Below, piece after piece: positions 17,049-64,000 of a stretch of DNA of 64,000 bases. A model generated the notes under the pieces. That model made no database searches. It was not told the DNA's origin and worked only from the letters and a program-made list of their open reading frames with translations. How positions within the stretch are numbered: the stretch's first letter is position 1; each line of letters opens with the position of its first letter. The stretch spans positions 283,386 to 347,385 of the forward strand of contig CP064968.1 of NCBI GenBank assembly GCA_016699245.1, in the 5' to 3' direction. The translations under genes were made by a program, and so were the position numbers. Source of the DNA: Candidatus Kaiserbacteria bacterium (GTDB taxonomy: Bacteria > Patescibacteriota > Minisyncoccia > Phycocordibacterales > UBA918).

Positions 17049-17231
17049 TCAGTGTTTTGTTGGTTCGTCACGTCTAGGTTCAACTAAAGTGTCATCATCT
17101 CCTCCGAAAATGCTTTCTGCTGCAGAAAAATCATATTCTTTTGTTTGTGCATTTTCAGTTGGTAGTTGGGCAAGTTTTTGTTTTTCAGTCATCTTAAATT
17201 CACCGTTCGCACGCTTTTGTTTTTCGGTCAT
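17049..17231 (-). CDS. Possible small protein with a duplicated MTEKQK(R/L)A motif.
   Basis: Only the 3' part of the annotated 162-aa ORF is plausible, because the 5' part runs through tRNA-Pro. Confidence 0.2.
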   Translation of the reverse strand: MTEKQKRANGEFKMTEKQKLAQLPTENAQTKEYDFSAAESIFGGDDDTLVEPRRDEPTKH

Positions 17232-17396
17232 TGCCCAAAGATTTGATTCAAAATGCCCCATAGTGTTATGTGCTAATAGTATGTTAAAAGTATAGCATTT
17301 TGCTATACTGTCCAGCATATGTTCCATAACAAAAGCATTTCTGTCGGGGTGTTGTATAGTAGTAGAACGTATCCATGTCGGGGACAAAAACAAAGT

Positions 17397-17467
17397 CGGG
17401 CTATAGTATACCGGTAGTACGCGTCCATGGGGTGGATGTAGACCGAGTTCGATTCTCGGTAGCCCGA
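17397..17467 (+). tRNA. tRNA-Pro (anticodon GGG), with no encoded CCA.
   Basis: CGGGCTA-TA-GTAT-ACCGGTA-GTAC-G-CGTCC-ATGGGGT-GGATG-TAGA-CCGAG-TTCGATT-CTCGG-TAGCCCG-A. Features are C1:G72, U8, A14, GG in the D-loop, U33, G37 and T-loop TTCGATT. The acceptor stem is extended by a perfect 14-bp flank. Confidence 0.8.
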
Positions 17468-17513
17468 CTTTGTTTTTGTCGGGAAGTGTGGGGCACTTCC
17501 CATATAGACTAAC

Positions 17514-17545
17514 AAAAACCGACGGCGCATTTGCCATCGGTTTTT
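17514..17545. terminator. Bidirectional intrinsic terminator after tRNA-Pro and after the minus-strand gene 17548..17847.
   Basis: AAAAA-CCGACGGC-gcattt-GCCATCGG-TTTTT. Confidence 0.65.
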
Positions 17546-20168: not shown

Positions 20169-20260
20169 ATTGGGCGCTACTATACTGTATGGAGGGGGTT
20201 TTGGCAATGATTCTAATTCAGCATACGCTTATTGCATTGACAAGCCCCCACTCTTGTTTT

Positions 20261-20297
20261 GTCACAGGGTAACCCTGTGTCACAGGGTTACCCTGTG
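20261..20297. promoter_or_regulatory. Two tandem copies of the perfect palindrome CACAGGGT(A/T)ACCCTGTG upstream of rpsT. Candidate operator.
   Basis: gtcacagggtaaccctgtg and tcacagggttaccctgtg sit directly adjacent, about 90 nt upstream of the rpsT start. Confidence 0.55.
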
Positions 20298-20315
20298 CAG
20301 GGTTGGTGAGGTGGG

Positions 20316-51553: not shown

Positions 51554-52626
51554 GATTGTGTTTCTTCTTCGATTGTTTCTTCGTTCAGTAATCGTTGTTT
51601 ACGTCTCCAGAGTGCATAAAATACAAGCGCGGTTATAAGTATAATAGTCCCCGTTACGATTATAGTGGTAATGAGCATGTCACGAGACATACTACGAAGT
51701 GCAGTATCAGGAACCAGAGTTACAACACGAATGTTACCTGCCTTATCAATAGCTTTTACACGAATCGTGCTATTCAGGGTTTGATCCTTGAGTACATAGG
51801 GACTTTCAGTTTCAATCCACGGCGCGTCTGCACGTCCCCATCTGAATGCACTGAACTCTGCAAATGGTTCTTCCATTACTTCATAGTGATCAATACCAGA
51901 TTGTTTGTCGTTTGAATTAAAGACTATGAAGTATTCATTATTAAATGCAACATCGTCTTTGGTAAGAGTAATGGTAAAGTCTGAAGGAATTTCGTTGTCA
52001 CTGCGCACATCATCCTTCCACGTGTCTTGGATTTGGGTACCTGCGGTATCTGCTAGATTAATACGTGCTTCTTGGAGTTTGAGTGGTGCTGGAGTACCGC
52101 TCCCATCATGTAAGAGCACTTGTGAACTTTCATCGAGCCAAATACGAGGCGATTTATTATCGCTTCCGCTACCAATCGTGAAGCCTGGTGATTGAAAAAC
52201 GATTTCAAGTACCATATTGGTAAGACTTGGATCACCCGCGATACGTCCACAATAGCCACCAGGCAATCCTCCAGCAAAACGAATGGTGTGGTTTATCTCA
52301 TCAATTTTTGGAGATTCAACCCAGAGGTTCAAAATAGAATCACCGCGAGAAATATCGACAGCGTTGAGTGCTGCATCATAATGAATAGTAGCATCGACAG
52401 TATTAACACACTCTCCTTCATCAGTATCAAGGCGAAGTCCTACCGTGACACTATTTCCCCGAAAAATATCAGCGCTTCCAGGATCAAAGTACAATGTTGC
52501 AGCGTGCGCATGTGTGGCAATCACCCCAAAAAATAATACAGCAAAAAAAGCAATACGCACTCGTATATCCATCATATAACTAAAAGTATACCAAATCGTA
52601 ACCTTAAAAGGAGGGGGACTGTACAC
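51550..52626 (-). CDS. Cohesin-like domain surface protein with a C-terminal transmembrane anchor. Paralog of the gene at 49808..51553.
   Basis: ATLYFDPGSADIFRGNSVTVGLRLDTDEGECVNTVDATIHYDAALNAVDISRGDSILNLWVESP...RFAGGLPGGYCG. Transmembrane helix LITTIIVTGTIILITALVFYALW. 4-nt overlap with the downstream gene. Confidence 0.6.
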   Translation of the reverse strand: MYSPPPFKVTIWYTFSYMMDIRVRIAFFAVLFFGVIATHAHAATLYFDPGSADIFRGNSVTVGLRLDTDEGECVNTVDATIHYDAALNAVDISRGDSILNLWVESPKIDEINHTIRFAGGLPGGYCGRIAGDPSLTNMVLEIVFQSPGFTIGSGSDNKSPRIWLDESSQVLLHDGSGTPAPLKLQEARINLADTAGTQIQDTWKDDVRSDNEIPSDFTITLTKDDVAFNNEYFIVFNSNDKQSGIDHYEVMEEPFAEFSAFRWGRADAPWIETESPYVLKDQTLNSTIRVKAIDKAGNIRVVTLVPDTALRSMSRDMLITTIIVTGTIILITALVFYALWRRKQRLLNEETIEEETQS

Positions 52627-52685
52627 AGACCGAGAAGGCTTTCGTTATTCTTAACTTCAATATCAAAGACTCAGAAAATAAGTCT

Positions 52686-53024
52686 CTACAGAACCAACTC
52701 ACCTTCTTTTGGCTTAGTGGCATCCACATCAGTAGGGTGTAATTGACATTTTTGGAGACATTTATCTCTAAAGTAGATTGCTCCAATCCGTCTAATAGTC
52801 TCAATATTCATCCCTTGGGTGTAGGCAAAATCTTTAAATATTTTATCTGTTTCTTTATCAAATTCTATGTCATCAAACAGATCAAAGACTTTCTCTTGAA
52901 TTTCGTATGCTGAAATGTCGCAATTATAACCGCATTTTTGATGCAGTTCATTCTCATGGGAATCAATATAGGTTTTCATGCCACTATCTTTCAGAACACG
53001 TTCACCTTCTGTAAGTAAACGCAA
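52686..53024 (-). CDS. Hypothetical protein, 112 aa, with a TTG start. The frame is open a further 141 nt upstream without an ATG.
   Basis: ORF with Cys/His spacing HQKCGYNCD...CLQKCQLH. The alternative start is an internal ATG at 52979. Confidence 0.35.
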   Translation of the reverse strand: MRLLTEGERVLKDSGMKTYIDSHENELHQKCGYNCDISAYEIQEKVFDLFDDIEFDKETDKIFKDFAYTQGMNIETIRRIGAIYFRDKCLQKCQLHPTDVDATKPKEGELVL

Positions 53025-53261: not shown

Positions 53262-53660
53262 GGAGACAGAATCCGAAATTATTGTCGCTTCGCTCTGTAA
53301 TTTCGGGTCACGGCCTCAGAAAATATAGGGGCTTGGGAAATTGATTCCGTCTTCGCGCAAAAATTTTTAGGAAAATGCGCGGCCTCAGAAAATATTGGGG
53401 CTTGGTATATAGATTCGCTACGGGGTCTTACGACGTCACTTTTTCTTCCGGGGGGAAGAAAAGGTCTCCTTTTTCATTATGAGAGAAAAAGGAGACAGGC
53501 TCCAAAATTATTGTCCTTACAGGACCTGTCCACTCATTGGGTCTTTTGTTTCACTTCATTCACAAAAGCCCTCAATGAGTCTTGCAAAGTGACATTTAGT
53601 CCTGTCACGCGGCGTGGGCCGGCCTCCAGAAAATATAGGGGCTTGGATATAGGATTTTCC
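53262..53660. repeat. Composite dispersed repeats in a 700-bp intergenic region. Two S-units are 5' ggagacagNNtccRaaattattgtc, and three R-units are ggcctc(c)agaaaatatWggggcttgg.
   Basis: S1 is at 53262-53292 and S2 at 53491-53520. R1 is at 53312-53336, R2 at 53381-53405 and R3 at 53621-53646. A 12-bp perfect hairpin GTCTCCTTTTTC/GAAAAAGGAGAC lies at 53464-53496, and the palindrome CTGTGACgaaGTCACAG at 53679-53695. Confidence 0.7.
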
Positions 53661-53743
53661 TTTTTCTGTGACGAAGTCACAGAAAAAAGGAAAAACCCTT
53701 CTCGTGGTGGGAGATAGGGTTTTCCTTATTCTTGTACTGTTGC

Positions 53744-54880
53744 TTAGAACGTCGGAGTTGCTACATAGCGCAGTGTCGTAGTGTAGTCGTCACCTGCTTC
53801 TTGCAAAGCCGAAATTTGAATCTGATAGCCGACACGTGCAGCACCGGAGTTTATTGTTGTTCCATCAGAGGGACCATTATGGCCCATGATAGCAATCGGT
53901 GTTGTACTTCCAGAAACCCACTCATTCGAGCCGAACTGTACAGATCGGGCAAGAATTGCTGTGTCATTTGAGGTTAATCCCCAATGACCATAGGAATTTG
54001 GATTTGCAATCAGACCTCCTGGACCCTGCCATGCCGAAGGCGTAACAGTGTTTGTCCCATCGATGAAGCCATCGATAGTCGCACCAGTTGTAGATTGCAA
54101 GCTGCCTGCTTGTTGAACTGTTACGGTGTAGCCTACTGAGGCGTTCGTCGAAACAGAGAGATCATGCGCAAGTGTACGTGATACTCCGATTGGCAAATTG
54201 CCAAAAGGAAGTGTTGTTGGGGTTGAGGTTGCAATAGTGGTCGTGGGACTACCGTTTACTGTTGAACTGGAATTTACTCCAGTGACCGTAAAGGTGAGTG
54301 ACGTATCCACATTTGCCGAAACCGTAACCTGGTCAACAATTGCAACACGCATCTCTCCTGAATCTTGCATCGTACCCGCAATTGTAATTGGGTATGATGT
54401 CGTAGCAGATGGATTTACAATTTTTATAGCACCGCCAGTAGCATTTGAACCAATCTTAATTATCATATCTGATGATGAAGCGGTTCCGCCGTCTGTTGGT
54501 GTCTCGAATGTAATCGCATCTGTACCAATACCAGTCACTCCCCATGTACCTGCCCCACTCGCACCCGCAAGCGTTTGATCAACCGTATTAACACTGAGGT
54601 CAATATCGCCGATTAAAACTCCTGAAGTGTCGAATTGTGAAGCAAAAGTAACAGTAAAGTTTGAGCTTGTTGCCATACCATTTGGTAGTTCAAAAGCTAT
54701 TGTGTGGTTTGATGTTACAGAAGGTGCTGAGTTGCTCAGCGTATCACTTGCGTTGGTGATTGATGCCGCCTCCGCAAAGCGGAAGAATGTTGGAAGACCA
54801 GTACTCCAAAGGAATAAGGCAAGTCCAACCGTCATCGCAACAGCCTGAAGAGTTCGCACGGTTCTTGCCGTGTGAGTCAT
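53744..54880 (-). CDS. Secreted protein, 378 aa. Its N-terminal leader and C-terminal domain of about 150 aa are homologous to the termini of the 2465-aa giant protein.
   Basis: N-terminus ...FFRFAEAAS (giant: HIAEAAEA). C-terminus SLTFTVTGVNSSSTVNG..TTLPFGNL...VGYTV...HWGL...TLRYVATPTF, against the giant's SLDFTMEGIASSTVVEG..TTLPFGKL...EGYQI...AAWTT...RIRYVSVPIF. Confidence 0.6.
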   Translation of the reverse strand: MTHTARTVRTLQAVAMTVGLALFLWSTGLPTFFRFAEAASITNASDTLSNSAPSVTSNHTIAFELPNGMATSSNFTVTFASQFDTSGVLIGDIDLSVNTVDQTLAGASGAGTWGVTGIGTDAITFETPTDGGTASSSDMIIKIGSNATGGAIKIVNPSATTSYPITIAGTMQDSGEMRVAIVDQVTVSANVDTSLTFTVTGVNSSSTVNGSPTTTIATSTPTTLPFGNLPIGVSRTLAHDLSVSTNASVGYTVTVQQAGSLQSTTGATIDGFIDGTNTVTPSAWQGPGGLIANPNSYGHWGLTSNDTAILARSVQFGSNEWVSGSTTPIAIMGHNGPSDGTTINSGAARVGYQIQISALQEAGDDYTTTLRYVATPTF

Positions 54881-55175
54881 AGGCTTTTCGTTGTATTAAT
54901 CAATACATTGACTCTAATAATGAGTAGTGCGTAGTTGGTGCTCTTTCCAACATAAAATTGCACTCCGCAAACACGAAAGTCTCCACCTCTCTAATGTTCA
55001 CTTTCAATGTATTACGCCTACCCAACAATGCCCGGCTGTGAGCATTTGCAGTAGAGACGTATTACTACCTCCTACAAGCGATATACACTCCTCACATGTG
55101 TGGACTGCATACCTCAAGTAGGCGTAACTTCATTGTAGCGTATGAGAAAATAATTTGCGTGAGTTATACACAAGA

Positions 55176-55350
55176 TTGAAATAGAGAATAGAAAATATGG
55201 AATATGGAATAGGACAACACTTCGTGTTGATTTTATATTCCATATTTTCTATCTTCTATTCTCTATTTTCTATTCCCTATCTTCTATCTTCTATTCCCTA
55301 TTTTCTATTTTCTATTCTCTATCTTCTATCTTCTATTCTCTATTCACTAT
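55176..55350. repeat. Palindromic microsatellite element E1. Arrays of the 8-mer AGAA(A/T)ATA / TTCTAT(C/T)T in inverted orientation around a GC core caacacttcgtgttg.
   Basis: Lies directly downstream of the stop of gene 55352..56479. The two arms are (agaataga/aatatgga)n and (ttctatct/ttctattc)n. Confidence 0.8.
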
Positions 55351-55351
55351 T

Positions 55352-56479
55352 CTACCCCGTCCAGTTGAACAAAAGGATTGAAAAGTCCTCGAGGCCTACT
55401 TTGCCGTTTTGATTGATGTCAGCGGGTGGGTTTGAATTGCCACCGGGGGTTCCCCACCAGAAAACAAGGATAGAGAAGTCTATAAGATTTACTTTTCCAT
55501 CACGATTGAGGTCGGCGTTACTTGTTGCTTTCCCTTCTACACCCACAAAAAGTGAAAGTACAGTGCCGTAGGGGCTTTCTATTTTTAAGGCTCCCGTACC
55601 AGAGACAAATCGCGCTTTGAGCGTATGTGTATCTACTGATACAGTACCCGTATTAAACGGTATAGACCATGCACCAAGTGCGTCTGAAGTAGTAGTGAGC
55701 ATCTTCTTTCCATTATCAATGGAAACTTCTACGGTGACACTGGGCATAGTTTGCCCACTGAGCGTAATGGTATCACCCGGATTTACATTCACCGTAGATG
55801 CACGGAGTGTTGGTGGCACCATGATGCCATTAAGACTTGTTACAGCCCCCTGCGTTACATCAAACGTCGTGTTCACCGTGAGTGAGCGGGTTCCCGATGA
55901 GTCTGTCGCCCAGAAACTAAATGATGCAGTACCGGGATCAGTCGTCACATTAAACTGAAACTCACCCCTGCTGTTGGTACGCACAGTTCCTACCGTGTCA
56001 CCGTCAATCAAAATATTTACTGTAGCGTTCGGAAATGCTTTTCCAGTGATGGTTACTTGTGTTTCACCCAATGGCTCATCGCGACCACCGCTCCCTGAAC
56101 TACCGCCTCCTCCCGTAGACCCTCCTCCACTATCAGCTGTTTGGCGACTACAGTCACCAGCACAAAAGTCTCCATCATCATTATTTCCATCGTCACATAC
56201 TTCTCCTTCAAGTGTCTGTAAAATGGCGTCACCGCAGTAATTACCATAAAGACAATCTGTGCCACACTGCCTACCTGCAATAGTCGTACTATATGTCCCA
56301 ATCTCTCCCGGAACATCACATTCCTCACCTTCATTAACAAGAGTGTCTCCACAAATGCTAATACGAACTGTCGTTGTGGAAACACTAATATTTGCAAATA
56401 CATCTGATGCACAACTAAAGATAATTATTGCATAAAACACTGGTACAAATAGCCGCATTGAGACGCATAGCATATGCAT
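55352..56479 (-). CDS. Secreted protein with Cys-rich CxxC/ECD repeats, a Gly-rich linker, Ig-like domains and C-terminal dockerin repeats.
   Basis: Signal peptide. The Cys-rich region is CGDTLVNEGEECDVPGE...CGTDC...YCGDAILQTLEGEVCDDGNNDDGDFCAGDCS, followed by GGGSTGGGGSSGSGG. The dockerin is DLNRDGKVNLIDFSILVFWW...DINQNGKVGLEDFSILLFNW. Confidence 0.6.
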   Translation of the reverse strand: MHMLCVSMRLFVPVFYAIIIFSCASDVFANISVSTTTVRISICGDTLVNEGEECDVPGEIGTYSTTIAGRQCGTDCLYGNYCGDAILQTLEGEVCDDGNNDDGDFCAGDCSRQTADSGGGSTGGGGSSGSGGRDEPLGETQVTITGKAFPNATVNILIDGDTVGTVRTNSRGEFQFNVTTDPGTASFSFWATDSSGTRSLTVNTTFDVTQGAVTSLNGIMVPPTLRASTVNVNPGDTITLSGQTMPSVTVEVSIDNGKKMLTTTSDALGAWSIPFNTGTVSVDTHTLKARFVSGTGALKIESPYGTVLSLFVGVEGKATSNADLNRDGKVNLIDFSILVFWWGTPGGNSNPPADINQNGKVGLEDFSILLFNWTG

Positions 56480-56485
56480 AGCGAA

Positions 56486-57409
56486 TTACTTTCTTCTTCG
56501 TGTCCGAATGAATATAAGGAATGGTACGAAGAGTATAAAGAGCACTGGGATGATTACTGAAAGTTGATGGGGGAGTGAAAGACCAAGGAATCCGAATCCC
56601 GCAGTTTGTAAAGTACCATATGGCAATACACTAAGATTGACCTCACCACTGAGCTTTACATCTTCTTCATTCAAAATTTCAAAACGAGCGAGGTAACTCC
56701 CTGCTGGAAGTTTCGTGGGGATTTCAGCAAAAATAGATTCAGTTGCAAATGGATCTACAGTATCAATACTTCCCTTTTTATGAGCTTCTTCAAGAAGCAC
56801 ATTACCTGTCTTATCGTAAATTCTAAACACAACATCAGACGGTGCAATCTCTACGTTACCTATGTTCTCAATAAGCATTTCGAATCGAATTTTTCCCGGG
56901 AAATATAGCCAGCCAACTTTGTGTCCTTCGTTTAAGTCAGATACACCAATTTTACGAACTTTGAAGTCCTTAATTTTTTTATCAATAACAGTGAGGTCGA
57001 CATCGAGTTGAGCACCAAGAGAAATACTCACCGCACCTCCAGCAACCTGATCATCAGGGGCACCAGTTTTGATGCGAATATTCCCTTTATATTGTTTAAA
57101 ATCAGCATCCTTTGGAACAGTCACTTTAACGGTCATTGGAACTTTTTGAACACCTTGTGGCAAGAGAAATTCGTTACCTTCATTGATAACTATCCATCCA
57201 TTTATTTCAGGAACATCAACATTCACTGTTGCTTTGAGGGCGGTGGTAGGATCACTACGGACAAGATAAATAGTCTGTTCGTATACAGAATTACGGGTGA
57301 GACTTACGTTCGTTACATATGGTGGCGTTACACCAAAACCTGCATACGTAGTATGCACAAAAACAAAAAGTACCGCTACTGAAAAAATGATTGAGCGAAA
57401 CAGTGCCAT
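56486..57409 (-). CDS. Signal peptide, beta-rich domain and C-terminal transmembrane anchor surface protein. Paralog family A, third member.
   Basis: Signal peptide ending TTYAG, a GVTPPYV motif, and a C-terminal transmembrane helix IIPVLFILFVPFLIFI followed by RTRRRK. Confidence 0.5.
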   Translation of the reverse strand: MALFRSIIFSVAVLFVFVHTTYAGFGVTPPYVTNVSLTRNSVYEQTIYLVRSDPTTALKATVNVDVPEINGWIVINEGNEFLLPQGVQKVPMTVKVTVPKDADFKQYKGNIRIKTGAPDDQVAGGAVSISLGAQLDVDLTVIDKKIKDFKVRKIGVSDLNEGHKVGWLYFPGKIRFEMLIENIGNVEIAPSDVVFRIYDKTGNVLLEEAHKKGSIDTVDPFATESIFAEIPTKLPAGSYLARFEILNEEDVKLSGEVNLSVLPYGTLQTAGFGFLGLSLPHQLSVIIPVLFILFVPFLIFIRTRRRK

Positions 57410-57520
57410 TATATATATGCAGGCGCTAATGCACCATAACTATAATTATCGTGTACTTACTCTATAAACGCAAGAACCCGCGCTGTATAACGCGGGTTCA
57501 ATGAATCTATGTTTAGAGGA

Positions 57521-59389
57521 CTACCACTGTAATGGTTCACCGACGAGTGCTGTAAATGTGTTCTGACCGGTATATGCCCCTGCAAAAGTAATAGTTCCTG
57601 GAACGCGTATACCCCAATATGCATCACGTTGCGCTGGAGTTGAAGTTGATGTCGACTTAGGTATGTTAATTTCAATCTCCTTTGGAGTCGTTGAGGAAAG
57701 TGTATTTCCAAGGCCTTCAGCGGTAGTATACGCTACACTCGAAGTAGCAAACACTTGCTCGTACTCTGGAATAGTTGCGGTGAGTGATGGAATACAAGGT
57801 GACGCATTTGTGTAGGTACTACACATCGACGATCCTGTAACATCCTTGTCGAGACCAACATTACCTGTTGCTACCATAGTTGTCGTTGCTGTAAGGACTT
57901 CATTTTTCTGTCCCGGTTCGAGTGCTCCGTATGGAATTTGAATTGTAGTGAGATTAAAGGCGAGAAGAGGTAATACATCAACTCCTACAGTACTTTCAGC
58001 ATATGCTCCTACAGCAGTATCATCATCTATACCTTGCACTTGAGCACGCCAGTCGTCTGTGGTGTAGAAGGACGCCGTTGTACTTCCTGTTGGGTCAGCT
58101 ATGTACCACATCGGGAATGTACATTCATAAAGAATATCTGAGTCAGATGAACCGGAACAGGTTGTTGATGAGGCGGTACACACAAGATTCCATGAAGTCG
58201 GTGCAATGTCACTTGGATAACAGTCATTGGGATCGAAGATTGAAGATGATGTACACGTTGTAGAACTATTTCCTGTAGGTGTTCGGTAAATTGATAGGTT
58301 GTAATCAGTAATTTCATCGTCATCTAGACCACCAAATGCATCACAACTATTATTATCTGAGGCTACAAATGATAGAGTAAATCCAGTTGTCTCACTTGAT
58401 TCATTAATCAAAACAATGTCATTTGTGATTGGTTGGGTGAGAGAAATACTAGTTCCACTCACTGTTGGAGCAACGTTGTTTACCGTAAGCGTATTCACTT
58501 GACCTTGTTCACCTCCCGATGCTTCAAATCCATGATTGTCAATGATGTACGGGTATACTCCAAAGTCAGTGTCCTGGGTTGGAATAATTATGGTATACGA
58601 TGCTGAAGCATCATCATCTACATATATGGTTGACGTTGCAAGTGTTACAGCAAGTGGACCATTACATGAGTTTGTTGTTGTTGAAAAGCCAGCCACAGAA
58701 CAAACGGTGAGAAATACTTGGTCGAATTGAGCACCACCAGAACTGTCGTTATCTGTTGAGGTACTATAGAAAGTTACCGCTTGACCAGGGATGCCAGTTA
58801 CAGGATCAGAGAATGCGGTGAAAGTTGGACGATGATTGACTTCAAATGGCGATGAGTTCGTAGCGTTTACACCTTGAGAATATGAGACGCTACATCGTGG
58901 GTTACCAGCGTTTCCGTCACAAATCCAGGAATACCATGCATTTGATTCAGCCCAGCCATCAAGAGTCGTTGTTGCTGCTACTGCTAGTGAACCACTCGTT
59001 GTGGTGCCTGACACTGCCCATTGGACACCAGAGGTACATCGCGGTGCACCGCCTGACGTAGATGTTGGCATAGCGCTGGTATCACAGATGAGAAGCCAGT
59101 AGTCTTCAGAGTTTGAGTCGGTGCCGATTGCTTTCCAAGAAATTACGTCGCCAGCGTTAGTTGGGTTTGTAATGGAGGATTCTATTATTTCAGTAGTTGA
59201 TGCCGTCCATGCAGGAGGGGTATTTACAACAATAACCGTCGTGCTCGCAGTACTTTGCGCATCTGCTTGCTTTATCTGGCTTTCACCAAGATTAAAAATG
59301 AATACTATTGCAAAAACTACTACACCAATGAATGTGGTATACACAGTAATTTTACCTGCCGTACGTAAATGATCTGTGTTATATGACAT
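57521..59389 (-). CDS. Large secreted Thr/Ser-rich beta-domain protein, 622 aa, N-terminally anchored.
   Basis: N-terminal transmembrane helix ITVYTTFIGVVVFAIVFIF followed by repetitive T/S-rich Ig-like regions. No catalytic motif. Confidence 0.45.
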   Translation of the reverse strand: MSYNTDHLRTAGKITVYTTFIGVVVFAIVFIFNLGESQIKQADAQSTASTTVIVVNTPPAWTASTTEIIESSITNPTNAGDVISWKAIGTDSNSEDYWLLICDTSAMPTSTSGGAPRCTSGVQWAVSGTTTSGSLAVAATTTLDGWAESNAWYSWICDGNAGNPRCSVSYSQGVNATNSSPFEVNHRPTFTAFSDPVTGIPGQAVTFYSTSTDNDSSGGAQFDQVFLTVCSVAGFSTTTNSCNGPLAVTLATSTIYVDDDASASYTIIIPTQDTDFGVYPYIIDNHGFEASGGEQGQVNTLTVNNVAPTVSGTSISLTQPITNDIVLINESSETTGFTLSFVASDNNSCDAFGGLDDDEITDYNLSIYRTPTGNSSTTCTSSSIFDPNDCYPSDIAPTSWNLVCTASSTTCSGSSDSDILYECTFPMWYIADPTGSTTASFYTTDDWRAQVQGIDDDTAVGAYAESTVGVDVLPLLAFNLTTIQIPYGALEPGQKNEVLTATTTMVATGNVGLDKDVTGSSMCSTYTNASPCIPSLTATIPEYEQVFATSSVAYTTAEGLGNTLSSTTPKEIEINIPKSTSTSTPAQRDAYWGIRVPGTITFAGAYTGQNTFTALVGEPLQW

Positions 59390-59461
59390 ATACTAATATG
59401 AACTGATTACCATAATTCTACTTTATTCAAGCTCAACAAAACCTTAGTTATACACAGTTTG

Positions 59462-60670
59462 TTATTCATAACGAATAGCATCGAGTGGATTAAGTAAGGA
59501 CGCACGACGTGCGGGAAAAATTCCTGTTAAATACCCCACTGAACCCGAGAATAAAGCAATGAATACAAGGAATCCTATAGGAAACTGGAAGAGATCAACA
59601 CTCTTCCCTCCGAACTGACTCGCTGCAACATTCAACATGATATTCACAACAAATCCCAAGGTTACCCCCATGAGTATCCCACTTACTCCACCAAGAAAAC
59701 CCACAATGATTGACTCGGACACAAACAAAAACTTAATATCGCGTGGTGAAGCGCCTATAGTACGCATGATACCAATCTCTTTGGTTCGCTCCAAAAGAGT
59801 CACTGTCATGGTATTAAACATACCAATAGCAGATACAAGAAGTGCAATACCACCAAACGTCGCCAAAACAACTTGAATTCCTTGGAAAATCTTGGATGCT
59901 TGCTCTACTGTCTTTGAAAGCGCAGTCACGCGATATCCTTCTTCAATAAGTGATTTTTCAACGTCTGCCAAAAATTCGTTCGATACAACCTTCACTTGTG
60001 CTCTGTCGTACTCCTCTATTCCTACATAGTTACGGAGTTCAGGAAGCATCATGAGTACATTAAGCACACCTTCTTCTTTGGTAATTCCTTTTACACGGTA
60101 TTTTTTCTCAATATTGATTTCCGTAACTAGGTCTGTGCCATCATCTGTAGGAACAAGGAGTCTAAAGGACACCTCCTGTCCAATAAAAGATTCAGCATCT
60201 TCAACACCGAAGAGTTTAAGAACGGCTGGTGAGAGCATGACTTCGCCCGTATTAGCAATATCTTCCTCAACAAAGGTGTCTCCGAAGGATGCAGTAATAC
60301 CAGCATATCGTAGATATGCTGGTTCAGCGCCCTGGATAAAGATATTTCCCGTAAGACCCTTGTAGGTAATCAGAGCGGGAAAACGGGCTAACGGCGCTGC
60401 ATCTTCAATATTTACATTTTTTTCAAAGCCTTGAATCACTTCGTCTGTAATTGAAAGGTTACGTGCACCAGTAGCAGACACACCAAGTGAAAGAAGGCTG
60501 TCTCCAAAGACGATTTGTTCAAGAATGATTTGCTGAAGTCCAAAACCAAGACCCACCAAAATCACCACAGCACCTGTACCAACACCCATACCAAGGATAG
60601 TCAGCCAGGTACGCATCGGATTCGTTTTAAACATGCGCGTTGAAAGACGCGCGAGATCCGCTACTTGCAT
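59462..60670 (-). CDS. ABC transporter permease, FtsX-like (MacB/LolCE family).
   Basis: 402 aa. N-terminal transmembrane helix, a large extracytoplasmic domain and three C-terminal transmembrane helices (TVTLLERTKEIGIMRTIGAS...). Confidence 0.8.
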   Translation of the reverse strand: MQVADLARLSTRMFKTNPMRTWLTILGMGVGTGAVVILVGLGFGLQQIILEQIVFGDSLLSLGVSATGARNLSITDEVIQGFEKNVNIEDAAPLARFPALITYKGLTGNIFIQGAEPAYLRYAGITASFGDTFVEEDIANTGEVMLSPAVLKLFGVEDAESFIGQEVSFRLLVPTDDGTDLVTEINIEKKYRVKGITKEEGVLNVLMMLPELRNYVGIEEYDRAQVKVVSNEFLADVEKSLIEEGYRVTALSKTVEQASKIFQGIQVVLATFGGIALLVSAIGMFNTMTVTLLERTKEIGIMRTIGASPRDIKFLFVSESIIVGFLGGVSGILMGVTLGFVVNIMLNVAASQFGGKSVDLFQFPIGFLVFIALFSGSVGYLTGIFPARRASLLNPLDAIRYE

Positions 60671-60683
60671 ATACTACATATAG

Positions 60684-60880
60684 TAATAGAAAATTGAGAA
60701 TATGGAATAGAGAATATAGGATAGAAAATAGAAGATAGAAAATAATAGGAAATAGAGAAGATATAGATAAATATTCAACCATCTCTATCCTCTATCCTCT
60801 ATCTTCTATCTTCTATTATCTATTATCTATTTTCTATTTTCTATCTTCTATCTTCTATTCTCTATCTTCTATCTTCTATA
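60684..60880. repeat. Palindromic microsatellite element E2. Same 8-mer inverted arrays. The core is atattcaacc, not a GC palindrome.
   Basis: Fills the entire gap between the ABC ATPase stop (60883) and the permease start (60670). Confidence 0.8.
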
Positions 60881-60882
60881 TA

Positions 60883-62205
60883 TTACGTCTTATAACTCAC
60901 ATCCACACCAAGAGCGATGAGTTTTTCCATATACCGTGCTAAGTCATCACTTGTCTTTTCATCGAGATGGAGCCCGCCATTTTTATATGTAGCCATGAGT
61001 TGTGCATGAAACTCTTTTTCGCCATGAATACCCGATAATCGGTCTGCAATCATTGTCGTAAGATTGGCTTCAGTGACTTTTGTAAGCGGAACACTGTGGT
61101 GTTGAAGAAGATACTCACGAACACGTTCAGCAAACTTATGCTGAGAGAAAAAGGCCGCATCAGAATCATTGTCATTGCGAAAACGCTTGATATCAGTTGA
61201 CTGTTTAACAATCGATACCGACACATTAGCCATATGTTCTGCGATTTTTCTGTCGACACCCACTCCCCCTTCATCATATTTTTTCACGAGTGCATCGACA
61301 AATAGTTTTTTATGTATCTTACCCATGATGAGTAAGTGGATTGCTTTTTCAATACGCGAAAGCTGACTAAAGGTATACTCTTGTGTAAGAAAGTTGGTGA
61401 GACTCTTCACACGTAATGTATCAACCGAGTCATACGGGAAAAGACGTGCGAGTTCCTCTAACTCAGTAACGATGGTCTCCCCTTCTCGTACCGGCTTTAT
61501 TTGTTTGCGCTGTGGATTGACCACTTCTCGCACAATAAAACCATCTTTAAGGTAATAGACTCGATGTGCATAAGAAAGGTGTGCGGCGTTGTGTGACACC
61601 ATGATAATGGTGCGCATATCAAACGTATTGATCTCATCAATCTTATCCATAACCTGTTGAGTAGAAATACTGTCAAGGTTACCGGTAGGCTCGTCAGCAA
61701 GAAGTATCTGTGGGTCGTTAACCATTGAACGAGCTACCGAAACACGCTGCTGTTGACCTCCTGAGAGCATAGAGGGGATCTTGTGAGATACCGCACCCAC
61801 ACCAAAACGGTCAAGGAGCATCTGCGCACGACGCTCACGAGTTGCCTTGTTCGCATCACAAAAAATCATGGGGAGCGCTACGTTGTCGAGTACGGAGAGA
61901 GAGCCAATGAGGTTGAAAGACTGGAAAATAATACCCATCACATACCGTTGAAAATACACACGCTCCTGAGGTGGATATGCATAAATATCATCGCCACGAA
62001 TAAGAAGTGTCCCATCACCCGGTGGCAAAGAGCCCTGTATGGCATACATGAGTGTCGACTTACCACATCCAGAAGGACCGAAGAGAATAATGTATTCCCC
62101 TTCATAGATGTCGGTATTGACGTGCTGGAGCGCTTTAAACTCATTCGACTTCCCTTTGTTGTAGGTAATCGTGAGGTCACGGCATGTGATAAGTGGTTTT
62201 GCCAT
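60883..62205 (-). CDS. ABC transporter ATP-binding protein (MacB/LolD-like) with a C-terminal extension of about 210 aa of unknown function.
   Basis: Walker A GPSGCGKST, signature LSGGQQQRVSVARSM, Walker B LLADEPTGNLD and H-loop MVSHN. Residues about 230-440 show no recognisable motif. Confidence 0.85.
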   Translation of the reverse strand: MAKPLITCRDLTITYNKGKSNEFKALQHVNTDIYEGEYIILFGPSGCGKSTLMYAIQGSLPPGDGTLLIRGDDIYAYPPQERVYFQRYVMGIIFQSFNLIGSLSVLDNVALPMIFCDANKATRERRAQMLLDRFGVGAVSHKIPSMLSGGQQQRVSVARSMVNDPQILLADEPTGNLDSISTQQVMDKIDEINTFDMRTIIMVSHNAAHLSYAHRVYYLKDGFIVREVVNPQRKQIKPVREGETIVTELEELARLFPYDSVDTLRVKSLTNFLTQEYTFSQLSRIEKAIHLLIMGKIHKKLFVDALVKKYDEGGVGVDRKIAEHMANVSVSIVKQSTDIKRFRNDNDSDAAFFSQHKFAERVREYLLQHHSVPLTKVTEANLTTMIADRLSGIHGEKEFHAQLMATYKNGGLHLDEKTSDDLARYMEKLIALGVDVSYKT

Positions 62206-62212
62206 AAGCTAT

Positions 62213-62400
62213 GAAATAGAAAATATGGAATAGAAAATGTATGAGATAGAAAATAGAAGATAGAAAATAGAAGATAGAACAACGCTTCGCGTTGTTTCAA
62301 GATTTTCAATTTTTACTATTCTATATTCCATATTTTCTATTTTCTATTCTATATTATCTATCTTCTATCTTCTATTTTCTATTCCATATCTTCTATCTTC
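62213..62400. repeat. Palindromic microsatellite element E3. Same 8-mer inverted arrays around a GC core gaacaacgcttcgcgttgtttc.
   Basis: Fills the gap between the stop of gene 62400..63959 and the ABC ATPase start (62205). The core is similar to that of E1. Confidence 0.8.
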
Positions 62401-63959
62401 TAACCATTTATATTTTTAACCCAACCGAAGGTGCTCTCGAAGTTTTCAATAATAATGTCGATGATATTCTTTTCTTGAATAGGCGTAAAAAGCACAAAGT
62501 TTTCTGACTTCACACTATTCTTAGATTCGTCTGCACAATCAAGCCAAAACTGATACACCGTTGCTGGTGCAAAATCGACAATCACCTCTACATGCTGCAT
62601 AGCGAAACCAGTGTCTTTTGAATCAATAACCGTAGGTTCAATACCACCGGTAATACCTTCACGATACGAGAGAGCACAATGGGCTGGTTCATCCGTAATC
62701 CATTCTATAATTGTTTGAATACGTGACTCCCCGCCCGGGAAGAGTGTGGATTCGTTCGTCACATTACTGATGATTGGTGGTGCTGTGTCCTTTACCGTAA
62801 TAAAAGTAATTGGATTGCTCTTTACACGGTCGCCACCTGCGTTTTCTGCAATAACAAAAGCAACATACCGTGTACCTAATGTAAGGTCAGAAATACGCAT
62901 TTGATGATTGGTGGCGAGGGTAGGACGACCTATTGAGTTTTGGGTACCCTTCGTCAAGTCTTGATACTCGACGAGTGCTTTTGCTGGAACTGTAGTGTCC
63001 CACGCGAGTGTTGCGGAGTTTTCCTCCACTTTCAAAATACGAAGATTTTTTATATCAGGGCGTGATGCCTTTGTCTTGAATGTATAATCACGGCTCTTCC
63101 CCTCAATACCGTATGTGTCTTTCGAACGCACTTGGAAATGATACTCGGTATATGGATCAAGACCAATCACGCGTACCTCGTGGTCAGTGGTATTACCACC
63201 CGTACTTGCTTGAGAGAAGGCATATTGACCTTCGGTATATGTATCTGATGGAGAAAAAAGAACTTCAGAACTAGATTCACGGTCGGTAGTCCATTTTACG
63301 AGTGCACTTGTGGTTTCTACAATCACCGTCGGAGGACCCACAATAGTGAGATCTTCGGTAATACCTTGAATTGCTTTTACCGTTTCATTGAGAATTTCTT
63401 GGAGTTTTTCTGGCGAATTGATTTGTTTAATTTGTTCGAGCACTTCTTGCACGGTCTGTGATTCAGATTGTGACTGTGATTGTGATTCAGACTGAGACTG
63501 GCTTTCACTCTGCACTGTTTGGCTCGTCTCAGTCTGCGTTTCTTTACCCTCCCCTGCTTCAGCGCCAGATTGTGGGTCACCGTCAGTGACTACTTTATAG
63601 TTTGCAGAAATGCCCTGATTCCCATCAGCATCTGAAGAAACAACGCGAAAATAGTAGGTACGACCAGGTTCAAGGGTATTCAGCGTTACAGAATGCTCAG
63701 TACGAATCGCTTCAGGAATACGTACGGTACCGTAATCTTCTTGAAGTCCATAATTAATAGTTGAATCAGCATCTTCATCAGTCTGCCAGGTAATCGTCAC
63801 TGTATCTTCCGCAACGTTGGTGATTTGCACATTCGTGATATCAGGCGGTACCGTGTCTGCAGCATGCACAAGAGGAGAGACCTGTGCAAAGTACACAATA
63901 CAAAAAAGCGTTACTACCGCTGTTGAAAGCGCTCGAATCATGTACAGTAAGTGTACCAC
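62400..63959 (-). CDS. Secreted protein with 3-4 fibronectin type III-like domains and an SQSESQ low-complexity linker.
   Basis: Signal peptide. The FN3 pattern is PPDITNVQITNVAEDTVTITWQTDEDADSTINYG...LEPGRTYYFRVVSSDADGN, repeated (KNLRILKVEENSATLAWDT...). Confidence 0.6.
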   Translation of the reverse strand: MVHLLYMIRALSTAVVTLFCIVYFAQVSPLVHAADTVPPDITNVQITNVAEDTVTITWQTDEDADSTINYGLQEDYGTVRIPEAIRTEHSVTLNTLEPGRTYYFRVVSSDADGNQGISANYKVVTDGDPQSGAEAGEGKETQTETSQTVQSESQSQSESQSQSQSESQTVQEVLEQIKQINSPEKLQEILNETVKAIQGITEDLTIVGPPTVIVETTSALVKWTTDRESSSEVLFSPSDTYTEGQYAFSQASTGGNTTDHEVRVIGLDPYTEYHFQVRSKDTYGIEGKSRDYTFKTKASRPDIKNLRILKVEENSATLAWDTTVPAKALVEYQDLTKGTQNSIGRPTLATNHQMRISDLTLGTRYVAFVIAENAGGDRVKSNPITFITVKDTAPPIISNVTNESTLFPGGESRIQTIIEWITDEPAHCALSYREGITGGIEPTVIDSKDTGFAMQHVEVIVDFAPATVYQFWLDCADESKNSVKSENFVLFTPIQEKNIIDIIIENFESTFGWVKNING

Positions 63960-64000
63960 CTGTTTGGTACAGACTCGGTGTGTGTTATTAACACACTAGT

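Follow-up and report, generated by a model that had tools for sequence, protein, structure and literature searches.

Introduction

Bacteria contain heptamer simple sequence repeats (SSRs) in excess of expectation (Rehm et al. 2015, PMC4692102). In Xanthomonas, heptamer SSRs with the unit GGGAATC are 89-93% intergenic, lie on average 28 nt after the upstream open reading frame (ORF) and form 70-75 convergent array pairs per genome, which vary between close relatives (PMC4692102). In Haemophilus influenzae, the (ATCTTTC)n SSR of hmw1A pairs with a purine-rich arm to form a 122-nt hairpin in the 5' untranslated region (UTR); the hairpin is cleaved by RNase III, adhesin expression is inversely related to the repeat number, and changes in the SSR need the hairpin (Rapun-Araiz et al. 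2025, PMC12721329). These repeats, together with those of Nostoc, are the closest precedents for the subject of this study, three elements named E1, E2 and E3 in a 64-kb stretch of a Candidatus Kaiserbacteria genome (assembly GCA_016699245.1, contig CP064968.1, positions 283,386 to 347,385; hereafter the window). E1-E3 are an AT-rich and unusually large variant of such repeats in a genome of the candidate phyla radiation (CPR), with a GC core in two of the three copies and an unusually clear evolutionary series. We consider it about an even chance (probability roughly 0.5) that they are over-grown terminator-type intergenic spacers built from a simple 7-nt repeat.

The elements share several properties with the repeats of Xanthomonas (GGGAATC) and Nostoc (GGGGAYT; short tandemly repeated repetitive, or STRR, type): tandem units of 7 nt in which certain positions are fixed and the rest are free, an intergenic location just behind the upstream ORF (about 90% there), frequent pairs of arrays that converge from opposite strands and are able to form a stem-loop, differences in length and sequence among close relatives, and no assigned function (PMC4692102). 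However, the Xanthomonas and Nostoc units are G-rich, which makes them G-quadruplex candidates, and occur in about 180 dispersed copies per genome, mostly 4 units long. In contrast, the units of E1-E3 are AT-rich, number up to 14-16 per arm, flank a GC core hairpin in E1 and E3, and are seen in three copies, clustered in one CPR operon, at junctions that measure 1 nt and are presumably translationally coupled in relatives. As in hmw1A/hmw2A, a pyrimidine heptamer (ATCTTTC there, ATCTTCT here) is paired with a purine arm in a long imperfect hairpin adjoining surface or export genes, and the unit number differs between strains. Nevertheless, hmw has one SSR arm, whereas E1-E3 have two imperfect ones, and transcription in the 5' UTR, RNase III cleavage and phase variation are proven there and would be putative here.

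Three further groups resemble E1-E3 in part. The Correia elements of Neisseria (Correia repeat enclosed elements, CREE, or Neisseria miniature insertion sequences, NEMIS) and other transposable elements of the miniature inverted-repeat type (MITEs) are intergenic inverted repeats of 100-200 nt which fold as RNA hairpins, may serve as substrates of RNase III and may give rise to promoters at their termini (PMC2649163, PMC3184786). They likewise show presence/absence polymorphism between strains, but they are bounded by defined inverted termini, duplicate a TA target and number hundreds of near-identical copies; no such feature was found for E1-E3, whose interior consists of simple-sequence arrays that appear to grow in place. 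The TAACTGA heptamer repeats of Beggiatoaceae, Cyanobacteria and Bacteroidetes are also intergenic and near start codons, carry stop codons in their units in all three frames, and have a scattered phylogenetic distribution and no known mechanism; unlike E1-E3, they are direct only (one inverted case in 170), have 2-6 copies and form no hairpin (MacGregor 2015, PMC4679880). Finally, bidirectional intrinsic terminators and repetitive extragenic palindromic (REP) sequences or bacterial interspersed mosaic elements (BIMEs) also follow a stop codon, with an A-rich/hairpin/U-rich layout on both strands, and the hairpin that occupies their slot can change from strain to strain. A canonical terminator measures 20-40 nt and has a GC stem and an uninterrupted U tract, and REPs are short, GC-rich and associated with REP-associated tyrosine transposases (RAYTs). 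The arms of E1-E3 are instead AT-rich repeats of 35-120 nt, and E2 is devoid of a GC stem.

Anatomy and folding of the elements

The components of the elements are given below in window coordinates; arrays are those reported by Tandem Repeats Finder (TRF).

55176-55354, minus strand: E1, stop-proximal heptamer-array element 3' of the Big_6/dockerin gene
55179-55212, plus-strand reading: short purine arm of E1, about 5 units
55215-55229: GC core hairpin of E1, CAACACTTCGTGTTG, exact
55230-55351, plus-strand reading: long pyrimidine arm of E1, about 16 heptamers
55180-55212 and 55243-55344 (14.6 copies): TRF arrays of E1
60684-60882, minus strand: E2, between the TAA of the ABC ATPase gene and the ATG (60670) of the FtsX/MacB permease gene
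60685-60772, plus-strand reading: purine arm of E2
60773-60783: AT-rich centre of E2, without GC core
60784-60881, plus-strand reading: pyrimidine arm of E2, 14 regular heptamers
60685-60744 and 60784-60879 (13.7 copies, 89% matches): TRF arrays of E2
62206-62402, minus strand: E3, between the TAG of the fn3 gene and the ATG (62205) of the ABC ATPase gene
62210-62279, plus-strand reading: purine arm of E3
62280-62294: GC core hairpin of E3, CAACGCTTCGCGTTG, exact
62295-62316: spacer of E3
62317-62402, plus-strand reading: pyrimidine arm of E3, including the fn3 TAG stop
62214-62279 and 62317-62402: TRF arrays of E3

The initial annotation had described three copies of a palindromic ATTCT-type microsatellite made of 8-mers, which precisely filled stop-to-start gaps. 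All three were found where they had been placed (about 55176-55354, 60684-60882 and 62206-62402), and each consists, on the plus strand, of a purine-rich array followed by a complementary pyrimidine-rich array. The unit, however, is not an 8-mer: TRF gave a period of 7 in all six arms (4.7-14.6 copies, 68-89% matches), with higher-order periods of 14, 21, 28 and 35 nt. Parsing defined the unit as CTATYYY/RRRATAG, that is, CTAT plus three pyrimidines on the pyrimidine strand, which makes the ATTCT label a misnomer; as the parsing was anchored on C[TC]AT, the invariance of CTAT is partly built in. The most frequent units are CTATCTT (17), CTATTTT (10) and CTATTCT (6), and a 14-nt compound unit, CTATTCCATATYTT, recurs. 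The arrays are imperfect, with longest perfect runs of 2-3 units. In the window they are confined to E1-E3, all inside 7.2 kb: at one mismatch or less, TCTATYTTCTATYT has 32 matches against 0.11 expected, all within the three elements. The relatedness of the GC cores of E1 and E3 was borne out as well; both are 15 nt long, differ by one compensatory pair and have their sole exact matches in the window there.

The stop-to-start arrangement holds for two of the gaps. The arrays start 0-3 nt from the upstream stop codons: on the coding strand, the first unit of E1 and of E3 is itself the stop codon (TAG 55352-55354 and TAG 62400-62402, respectively), and the TAA of the ABC ATPase gene (60883-60885) lies 3 nt ahead of the E2 array. 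At the other end, E2 stops 14 nt and E3 about 5 nt before the next ATG, whereas E1 ends at a promoter-like TTGTGTATAAC, about 296 nt short of the next start codon.

In folding, all three elements surpass shuffled sequence by a wide margin. The RNA folds predicted for the coding (minus) strand reach -40.4 kcal/mol for E1 (z = -4.3), -74.5 kcal/mol for E2 (z = -6.0) and -71.9 kcal/mol for E3 (z = -9.9), with 0/200 shuffles as good in each case; folded as DNA, E3 gives z = -8.0. The giant hairpin proposed initially is thus matched by strong folds, but not by a strict palindrome: the arms pair about equally well in several registers offset by multiples of 7, and they are therefore complementary arrays rather than one strict palindrome. 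No Rfam family reached its gathering threshold for E1-E3, and below the threshold only eukaryotic miRNA hairpins appeared. A terminator scan picked up the cores of E1 and E3, with interrupted tails CTATCTTCTA and ATTTTATATT. Several small ORFs are listed inside or across the elements (55197-55412 and 62292-62507 on the plus strand, 61938-62309 on the minus strand), and gene callers also place ORFs at the repeats of other strains (L209:4341-4445 and equivalents, e.g. a 34-aa 'gene' in an E3 homologue); the frames that stay open along the pyrimidine arms result from the composition of the repeats. In practice, arrays like these are hot spots for spurious ORF calls and for assembly gaps.

Variation between conspecific strains

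Conspecific strains were available from two projects (L209, L210, L211, L214 and L449 from one, L445 from the other). The flanking genes of L209 and L211 are 95-97% identical to those of the window, the ABC gene of L445 is 93.7% identical to the window's, and the permease and the 307-aa protein of L209 have the same amino-acid sequence as in the window. Between the window and L209, the third codon positions of the flanking genes are 86-99.7% identical and two ordinary spacers 99-100% identical. In contrast, identity drops to 66% in E2 and 53% in E3, against 95% for the flanks. E2 and E3 are hypervariable and evolve very fast, which makes intergenic spacers the fastest-evolving parts of an otherwise conserved surface-protein/exporter locus in these reduced CPR genomes.

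The L209 versions of E2 and E3 are degenerate A-rich and T-rich spacers around a small central hairpin, and they fold only marginally better than shuffles (z = -2.1 and -1.7). Given such weak hairpins in conspecific strains, conservation of the giant hairpin does not extend even to other members of the species, and the hairpin is not a conserved functional requirement. L209 and L445 are 6% apart in the ABC gene and nevertheless have nearly the same E3, so that the remodelled copy is that of the window.

The comparison of repeat counts between strains showed the step by which the arrays change. The T-rich arm of E2 differs between L209 and L445 by one 7-nt and one 14-nt unit indel. The E2 of L445 opens like that of the window, with TAATATATA, and continues with a short regular array (AGAAAAT AGAGAAT AGAAAAT AGATAAA) where the window has about 14 units. 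When E2 is compared with that of a more distant relative, L001, the 3' half aligns and the 5' arm of the window is about 90 nt longer. Taken together, the indels, the short array of L445 and the longer 5' arm provide what appears to be direct evidence of growth in place by heptamer steps. The initial annotation had judged the arrangement too structured for simple-sequence expansion; the intermediate strain and the 7- and 14-nt indels indicate instead that slippage builds such arrays. Within a strain, E2 and E3 are identical in four contigs from four samples, and the elements are identical in three contigs of the L001 lineage.

E1 has a different history: it is absent from L209 and L211, where its site holds ordinary GC hairpins plus about 600 nt of other hairpin modules. 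The three elements of the window are also more similar to each other (8-mer Jaccard index 0.17-0.22) than to their orthologues (0.04-0.13), and the GC core of E1 and E3 occurs in 0/215 loci searched for it. These two results point to homogenisation or copying between the three nearby sites. A 28-nt stretch common to E1 and E3 was considered as proof of copying and was rejected, as whole-unit shuffling shows it to be expected from the unit vocabulary.

Two additional observations concern the same comparison. Nucleotide identity between window positions 55359-64000 and L209 is 92.6% in the fn3 gene, 94.9% in the ABC gene, 95.9% in the permease gene, 98.9% in the 622-aa gene and 99.8% in the 307-aa gene; this steady fall in divergence along the locus suggests a recombination mosaic, whose breakpoints possibly lie close to the repeat elements. 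Downstream of the 378-aa gene, the spacer (53300-53700, minus strand) is a patchwork of small repeats with three copies of a AAGCCCCTATATTTTCTGAGGCCG-like motif. It contains, at 53415-53465, a 51-nt hairpin, GTCACTTTTTCTTCCCCCCGGAAGAAAAAGTGAC, of which a 94% identical copy is present at the E1 site of L209 and L211. As this hairpin is found at two different spacers, hairpin modules do move between spacers.

The same junctions in other Kaiserbacteria

We compared 88 syntenic loci around the ABC gene, of which 8 were retrieved by exact-protein look-up and 80 from metagenomes. The junction between the ABC and permease genes measures 1-8 nt in 23/88 loci, and that between the fn3 and ABC genes is a single nucleotide in L004 and L006 (TAA-T-ATG) and has a length of 1-6 nt in several other loci. 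As tight junctions are common among relatives, they are probably ancestral, and the genes are presumably translationally coupled there. Other junctions are spacers of 20-40 nt that hold little beyond a TGTGNCATAAT box 6-12 nt before the ATG, and further ones carry inserts of 100-500 nt, many with significant hairpins and with unrelated sequences.

Elements of the same style, with an AT-rich purine arm first and the complementary arm second, occupy ABC junctions in L001, L144, L149, L174 and L194, with units such as ATATGGA, ATAGAAA and ATTGAAA; an 8-mer version of the arrays is present in L159 and L193. The loci offer a dated natural series for the origin of a large hairpin, leading step by step from a 1-nt junction to a short A-rich/hairpin/T-rich spacer, a short heptamer array and a giant repeat hairpin. 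Such a series would imply that hairpin elements can arise in place through heptamer slippage and then pass between neighbouring sites, which bears on the origin of REP-like and MITE-like hairpins and of bacterial heptamer repeats.

The ABC-permease junction appears to be a favoured place for insertions in general. In L006 (11418-11684), and also in L007, the ABC ATPase gene is separated from the permease gene by rpsT, which encodes ribosomal protein S20 and has a terminator hairpin of its own; this would be further evidence for such a preference. Separately, a second and unrelated family of hairpins of about 125 nt was identified at ABC-flanking junctions of other lineages (L001:9851-9975 and L005:9836-9960, both between the fn3 and ABC genes), with related hairpins at L165:2903-3035, L168:7866-7990, L175:5868-5992 and L184:4376-4510. 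Its motifs are TCTTYGTTGYTGC and TTCACYGTA, with GCGCCTCRAA common to L001, L005, L165 and L184. Covariation was found in 8/21 inner-stem pairs of this family, and the flanks of the L001 copy resemble a TAATATG duplication. A seed for the heptamers was also sought in the REP-like CCAGAAAATAA...TATATTTTCTGAG hairpins of relatives; these form a separate dispersed family, and the link is suggestive but unproven.

A pattern scan of genome contigs for arrays of the same heptamers returned, among the matches listed, very diverse taxa from other phyla and no Kaiserbacteria; the arrays lay outside long ORFs in 90/120 of these cases. Short arrays of this heptamer are hence widespread, though sporadic, and mostly intergenic. 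The purine-first inverted arrangement was also seen, among the matches listed, in L015, L022, L078, L099 and L112. Long pure AGAAGAT/AGAAAAT arrays of up to about 40 units stood out in the same matches (L026:3582-3846, L122:3748-3956, L119:6951-7578 and L028:7831-7912); their hosts are a metagenome-assembled genome labelled Bifidobacteriaceae, Saccharibacteria, Bacteroidota and Neomarinimicrobiota. Matches to viral contigs, obtained with a 17-mer signature and the array pattern, were scattered singles in AT-rich viral and giant-virus contigs; with at least about 20 chance matches by a rough estimate, they were set aside as uninformative.

Origin and function of the elements

Most likely, E1-E3 represent no new kind of machine, but terminator-type spacers that have over-grown. 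The basic module would be an A- or purine-rich tract, a small core hairpin and a U- or pyrimidine-rich tract, placed behind a stop codon and ahead of the promoter or start that follows; the A-rich/core hairpin/U-rich architecture is also seen in the conspecific strains. In the lineage of the window, the AT-rich flanks would have been expanded by slipped-strand mispairing of RRRATAG/CTATYYY units in blocks of 1-5 units, and the unit vocabulary and GC core would then have been spread or homogenised among the three sites, possibly by ectopic gene conversion, template switching or copying. The outcome would be the present sequences of 175-200 nt with complementary arms, predicted to fold into AU-rich hairpins of 50-80 bp.

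The orientation of the arms fits this reading. With the purine arm first on either strand, an entering reading frame would meet a TAG within 21 nt in all three frames, and a core hairpin followed by a U-rich tract would be encountered in both directions, which is the geometry expected of a bidirectional terminator-type spacer. A terminator role had been suggested initially, and it retains some support from the slot between stop codon and promoter or start and from the A-rich/hairpin/U-rich layout. As the 3' tail of the upstream transcript, the hairpin would have at most a generic role, such as leaky terminator or insulator, 3'-end stabiliser or RNase III substrate. Any function of the elements is probably of that generic kind (termination, insulation, 3'-end protection or RNase III processing). 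The element would also uncouple genes which, in many relatives with a 1-nt junction, appear translationally coupled, and the downstream gene would rely on a -10 box at the element edge.

Several results weigh against this reading. In the window and about 980 kb of loci from relatives, dense arrays are restricted to the two ABC-flanking junctions plus E1, and a model of purely generic spacers does not predict such near-confinement to ABC junctions. Interruptions break up the U-rich tracts, which have about 4 U among their first 8 nt, and a GC stem is missing from E2, which makes canonical intrinsic termination doubtful there. The ABC gene of the window, downstream of E3, is preceded by no convincing -10 or Shine-Dalgarno (SD) sequence, so that an efficient terminator at E3 would silence it. 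Among 11 elements, the stability of sense and antisense folds showed no consistent asymmetry, and there is thus no pointer to RNA-level selection on the coding strand. Furthermore, long substrings common to the arms are not significant in the whole-unit-shuffle control, which limits the evidence for copying between sites to the GC core and the k-mer vocabulary.

The most serious rival, which we nonetheless regard as unlikely, is a contingency or expression-tuning switch of the hmw type, in which transcribed arrays form a hairpin cut by RNase III and the unit number sets the output of the ABC ATPase, the permease and the neighbouring surface protein. The precedent of hmw1A, a heptamer SSR hairpin with RNase III cleavage (PMC12721329), is close, given that ATCTTCT is very similar to ATCTTTC and that the hairpins are long and imperfect in both. 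The neighbours are surface proteins and a MacB-type exporter, and the 7/8-mer arrays recur specifically at ABC-gene junctions in several lineages. Strains also differ in unit number, and the length-variable role that had been anticipated gains from these heptamer-unit differences, which are compatible with tuning; should the arrays indeed tune expression, no contingency-type loci would have been described in this group before them. Nevertheless, the imperfect arrays (perfect runs of 2-3 units, 68-89% matches) are a poor substrate for frequent reversible slippage, and the identity of E2 and E3 in the four contigs of one strain, like that of the three L001-lineage contigs, speaks against a switch. 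In addition, the hairpin would fall outside the downstream mRNA if genes start leaderless from the -10 at the element edge, and conspecific strains do without a strong hairpin. A related and rather improbable possibility is an RNA-level device specific to the exporter/surface-protein locus, in which RNase III would cut the transcribed heptamer hairpin or the base of the hairpin would be bridged, and slippage-altered arm length would determine the proportions of fn3 protein, ABC ATPase and permease. Bridging would be plausible because the stem brings the stop and the next start to within about 5 nt of one another. Such a device would amount to a contingency switch in a CPR episymbiont, and possibly to a bacterial analogue of hairpin shunting or re-initiation that keeps translational coupling across an insert.

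The elements could also be non-autonomous transposable elements, either MITE- or Correia-like or REP doublets forming hairpins (REPINs), with a transposase elsewhere, E1 and E3 as recent insertions and the repeats as part of inverted termini. This agrees with the absence of E1 from conspecific strains, with an orthologous junction at which E3 is absent or different, with a GC core found nowhere else in the data and with paralogues that are more alike than orthologues. Other small hairpin modules, such as the 51-nt hairpin shared with the E1 site of L209 and L211, are clearly dispersed, and promoters and RNase III hairpins are supplied by Correia elements as well (PMC2649163). We hold this explanation to be improbable all the same. 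Although the elements are palindromic up to their ends, no target-site duplication and no sharp common termini were found at any of the three sites (for E1 and E3, by comparison with sites that are empty or hold an alternative), E1 takes the place of about 600 nt rather than being a clean insertion, and the copies are not near-identical, their arm similarity being explained by the unit vocabulary. The three copies in 64 kb all lie within 7.2 kb, the arrays in about 900 kb of relatives lie at the same junctions only, and the history of E2 is vertical, with in-place growth. A Pfam scan that covered window ORFs outside 52604-53024 revealed no transposase, RAYT or Y1 transposase. Of the MITE-like role suggested initially, what stands is the presence/absence and replacement polymorphism; target-site duplication, defined ends and, among the scanned ORFs, a transposase were not found. 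Elements of 175-200 nt that are AT-rich and have three copies, with no Y1 transposase among the scanned ORFs, also differ from REP, BIME or REPIN families.

Binding of a small protein to the 7-bp heptads, such as a ribbon-helix-helix repressor of the omega type, would turn the arrays into operators or centromere-like sites. The omega protein of inc18 plasmids binds 7-10 WATCACW heptads in mixed orientation, and our arrays share a strict 7-bp period, four invariant positions (CTAT/ATAG) with three variable ones, both orientations, and a place directly upstream of promoter-like -10 motifs. However, the invariance of CTAT stems in part from the parsing anchor, the units are degenerate at the orthologous sites of conspecific strains and thus preserve no binding consensus, and at least 27 heptads per site are far beyond known operators. 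As the Pfam scan of the window ORFs, within the limits given above, yielded no candidate heptad-binding protein either, we consider this explanation very unlikely. Least probable of all is an assembly artefact, in which low-complexity or fold-back reads would have been misassembled into artificial palindromic arrays. Arrays of the same heptamer are broken by N runs in L026 and L122 and are evidently hard to assemble, and exact-protein look-ups with the ABC, dockerin and 378-aa proteins retrieved no second assembly of the window strain from the searched collections. Against an artefact, independent assemblies made in different projects (L001-L003, L144, L174, L194, L209-L214 and L445) have elements of the same style at the same junctions, the flanking genes are intact, and the in-array stops fall at the orthologous codon position. 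Three other readings were discarded outright: there are no unique spacers as in CRISPR arrays, the GC skew is monotonic rather than that of a replication origin, and TAG in all frames contradicts a coding repeat.

A structured RNA beside E1

Adjacent to E1, we identified a conserved, structured non-coding RNA or 5' leader of about 290 nt (54881-55175, minus strand), which lies between E1 and the ATG at 54880. Nine homologues were found in Kaiserbacteria loci. RNAalifold predicted 63 pairs, 39 of which show compensatory double changes; 92.7% of cells are paired, compared with 31-51% when partners are slid, and the observed values were reached by 0/500 shuffles. The conserved single-stranded motifs are ACAGCCGAGC, GGTGGAGACT, GAAAGAGCAC and ATTATTAGAGTC, and a conserved promoter-like region, TTGTGYATAAST ... 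TACAAT, precedes the RNA. No Rfam match was obtained, even at permissive thresholds, and no Pfam or NCBIfam family was found for the 378-aa protein encoded downstream. We therefore refer to this RNA as a candidate for a new riboswitch-like leader, and it may merit more attention than the repeats themselves.

Gene context and additional observations

The genes around E1-E3 are all on the minus strand, in the order fn3 protein, E3, ABC ATPase, E2, MacB/FtsX permease, two unknown proteins, Big_6/dockerin protein and E1. The features next to the elements are the following.

62400-63959, minus strand: gene of an fn3-repeat surface protein, whose stop codon is the first E3 unit
60883-62205, minus strand: gene of an ABC transporter ATP-binding protein, 440 aa (Pfam ABC_tran), 100% identical to QQR65265.1 (Candidatus Kaiserbacteria)
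59462-60670, minus strand: gene of a MacB-type permease (FtsX + MacB_PCD), downstream of E2
55352-56479, minus strand: gene of a Big_6/dockerin surface protein, whose stop codon is the first E1 unit
55163-55173, minus strand: promoter-like TTGTGTATAAC (extended -10 type), directly 3' of E1 and kept in relatives (alignment columns 3-13)

The elements thus neighbour surface proteins (fn3, Big_6/dockerin, cohesin) and a MacB-type exporter, and the window elsewhere contains housekeeping genes (ATP synthase, UvrABC, Ddl, Tgt) plus surface proteins. TACTAT/TATATG hexamers resembling a -10 box lie 7-13 nt ahead of the permease ATG. More generally, an extended -10-like box, TGTGNCATAAT (or TATAAT/TAGAAT), is situated 6-12 nt upstream of start codons, usually without an SD sequence. 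It was seen before the permease ATG in, for example, L153, L161-L163, L165, L168, L174, L188, L194 and L207, and at gene starts of the window generally. This spacing, together with the usual lack of an SD sequence, suggests that leaderless or near-leaderless mRNAs are common in these Kaiserbacteria.

Two minor features were noted far from the elements. ARAGORN called a tRNA-Pro(GGG) at 17397-17468 (plus strand), within a minus-strand ORF (17049-17537); the Rfam tRNA model did not report it at the gathering threshold, and the call is possibly a false positive. An 18-nt repeat that is both tandem and palindromic, TGTCACAGGGTAACCCTG, is present in 2-2.8 copies at 20260-20304, at the end of the UvrC-like gene region.

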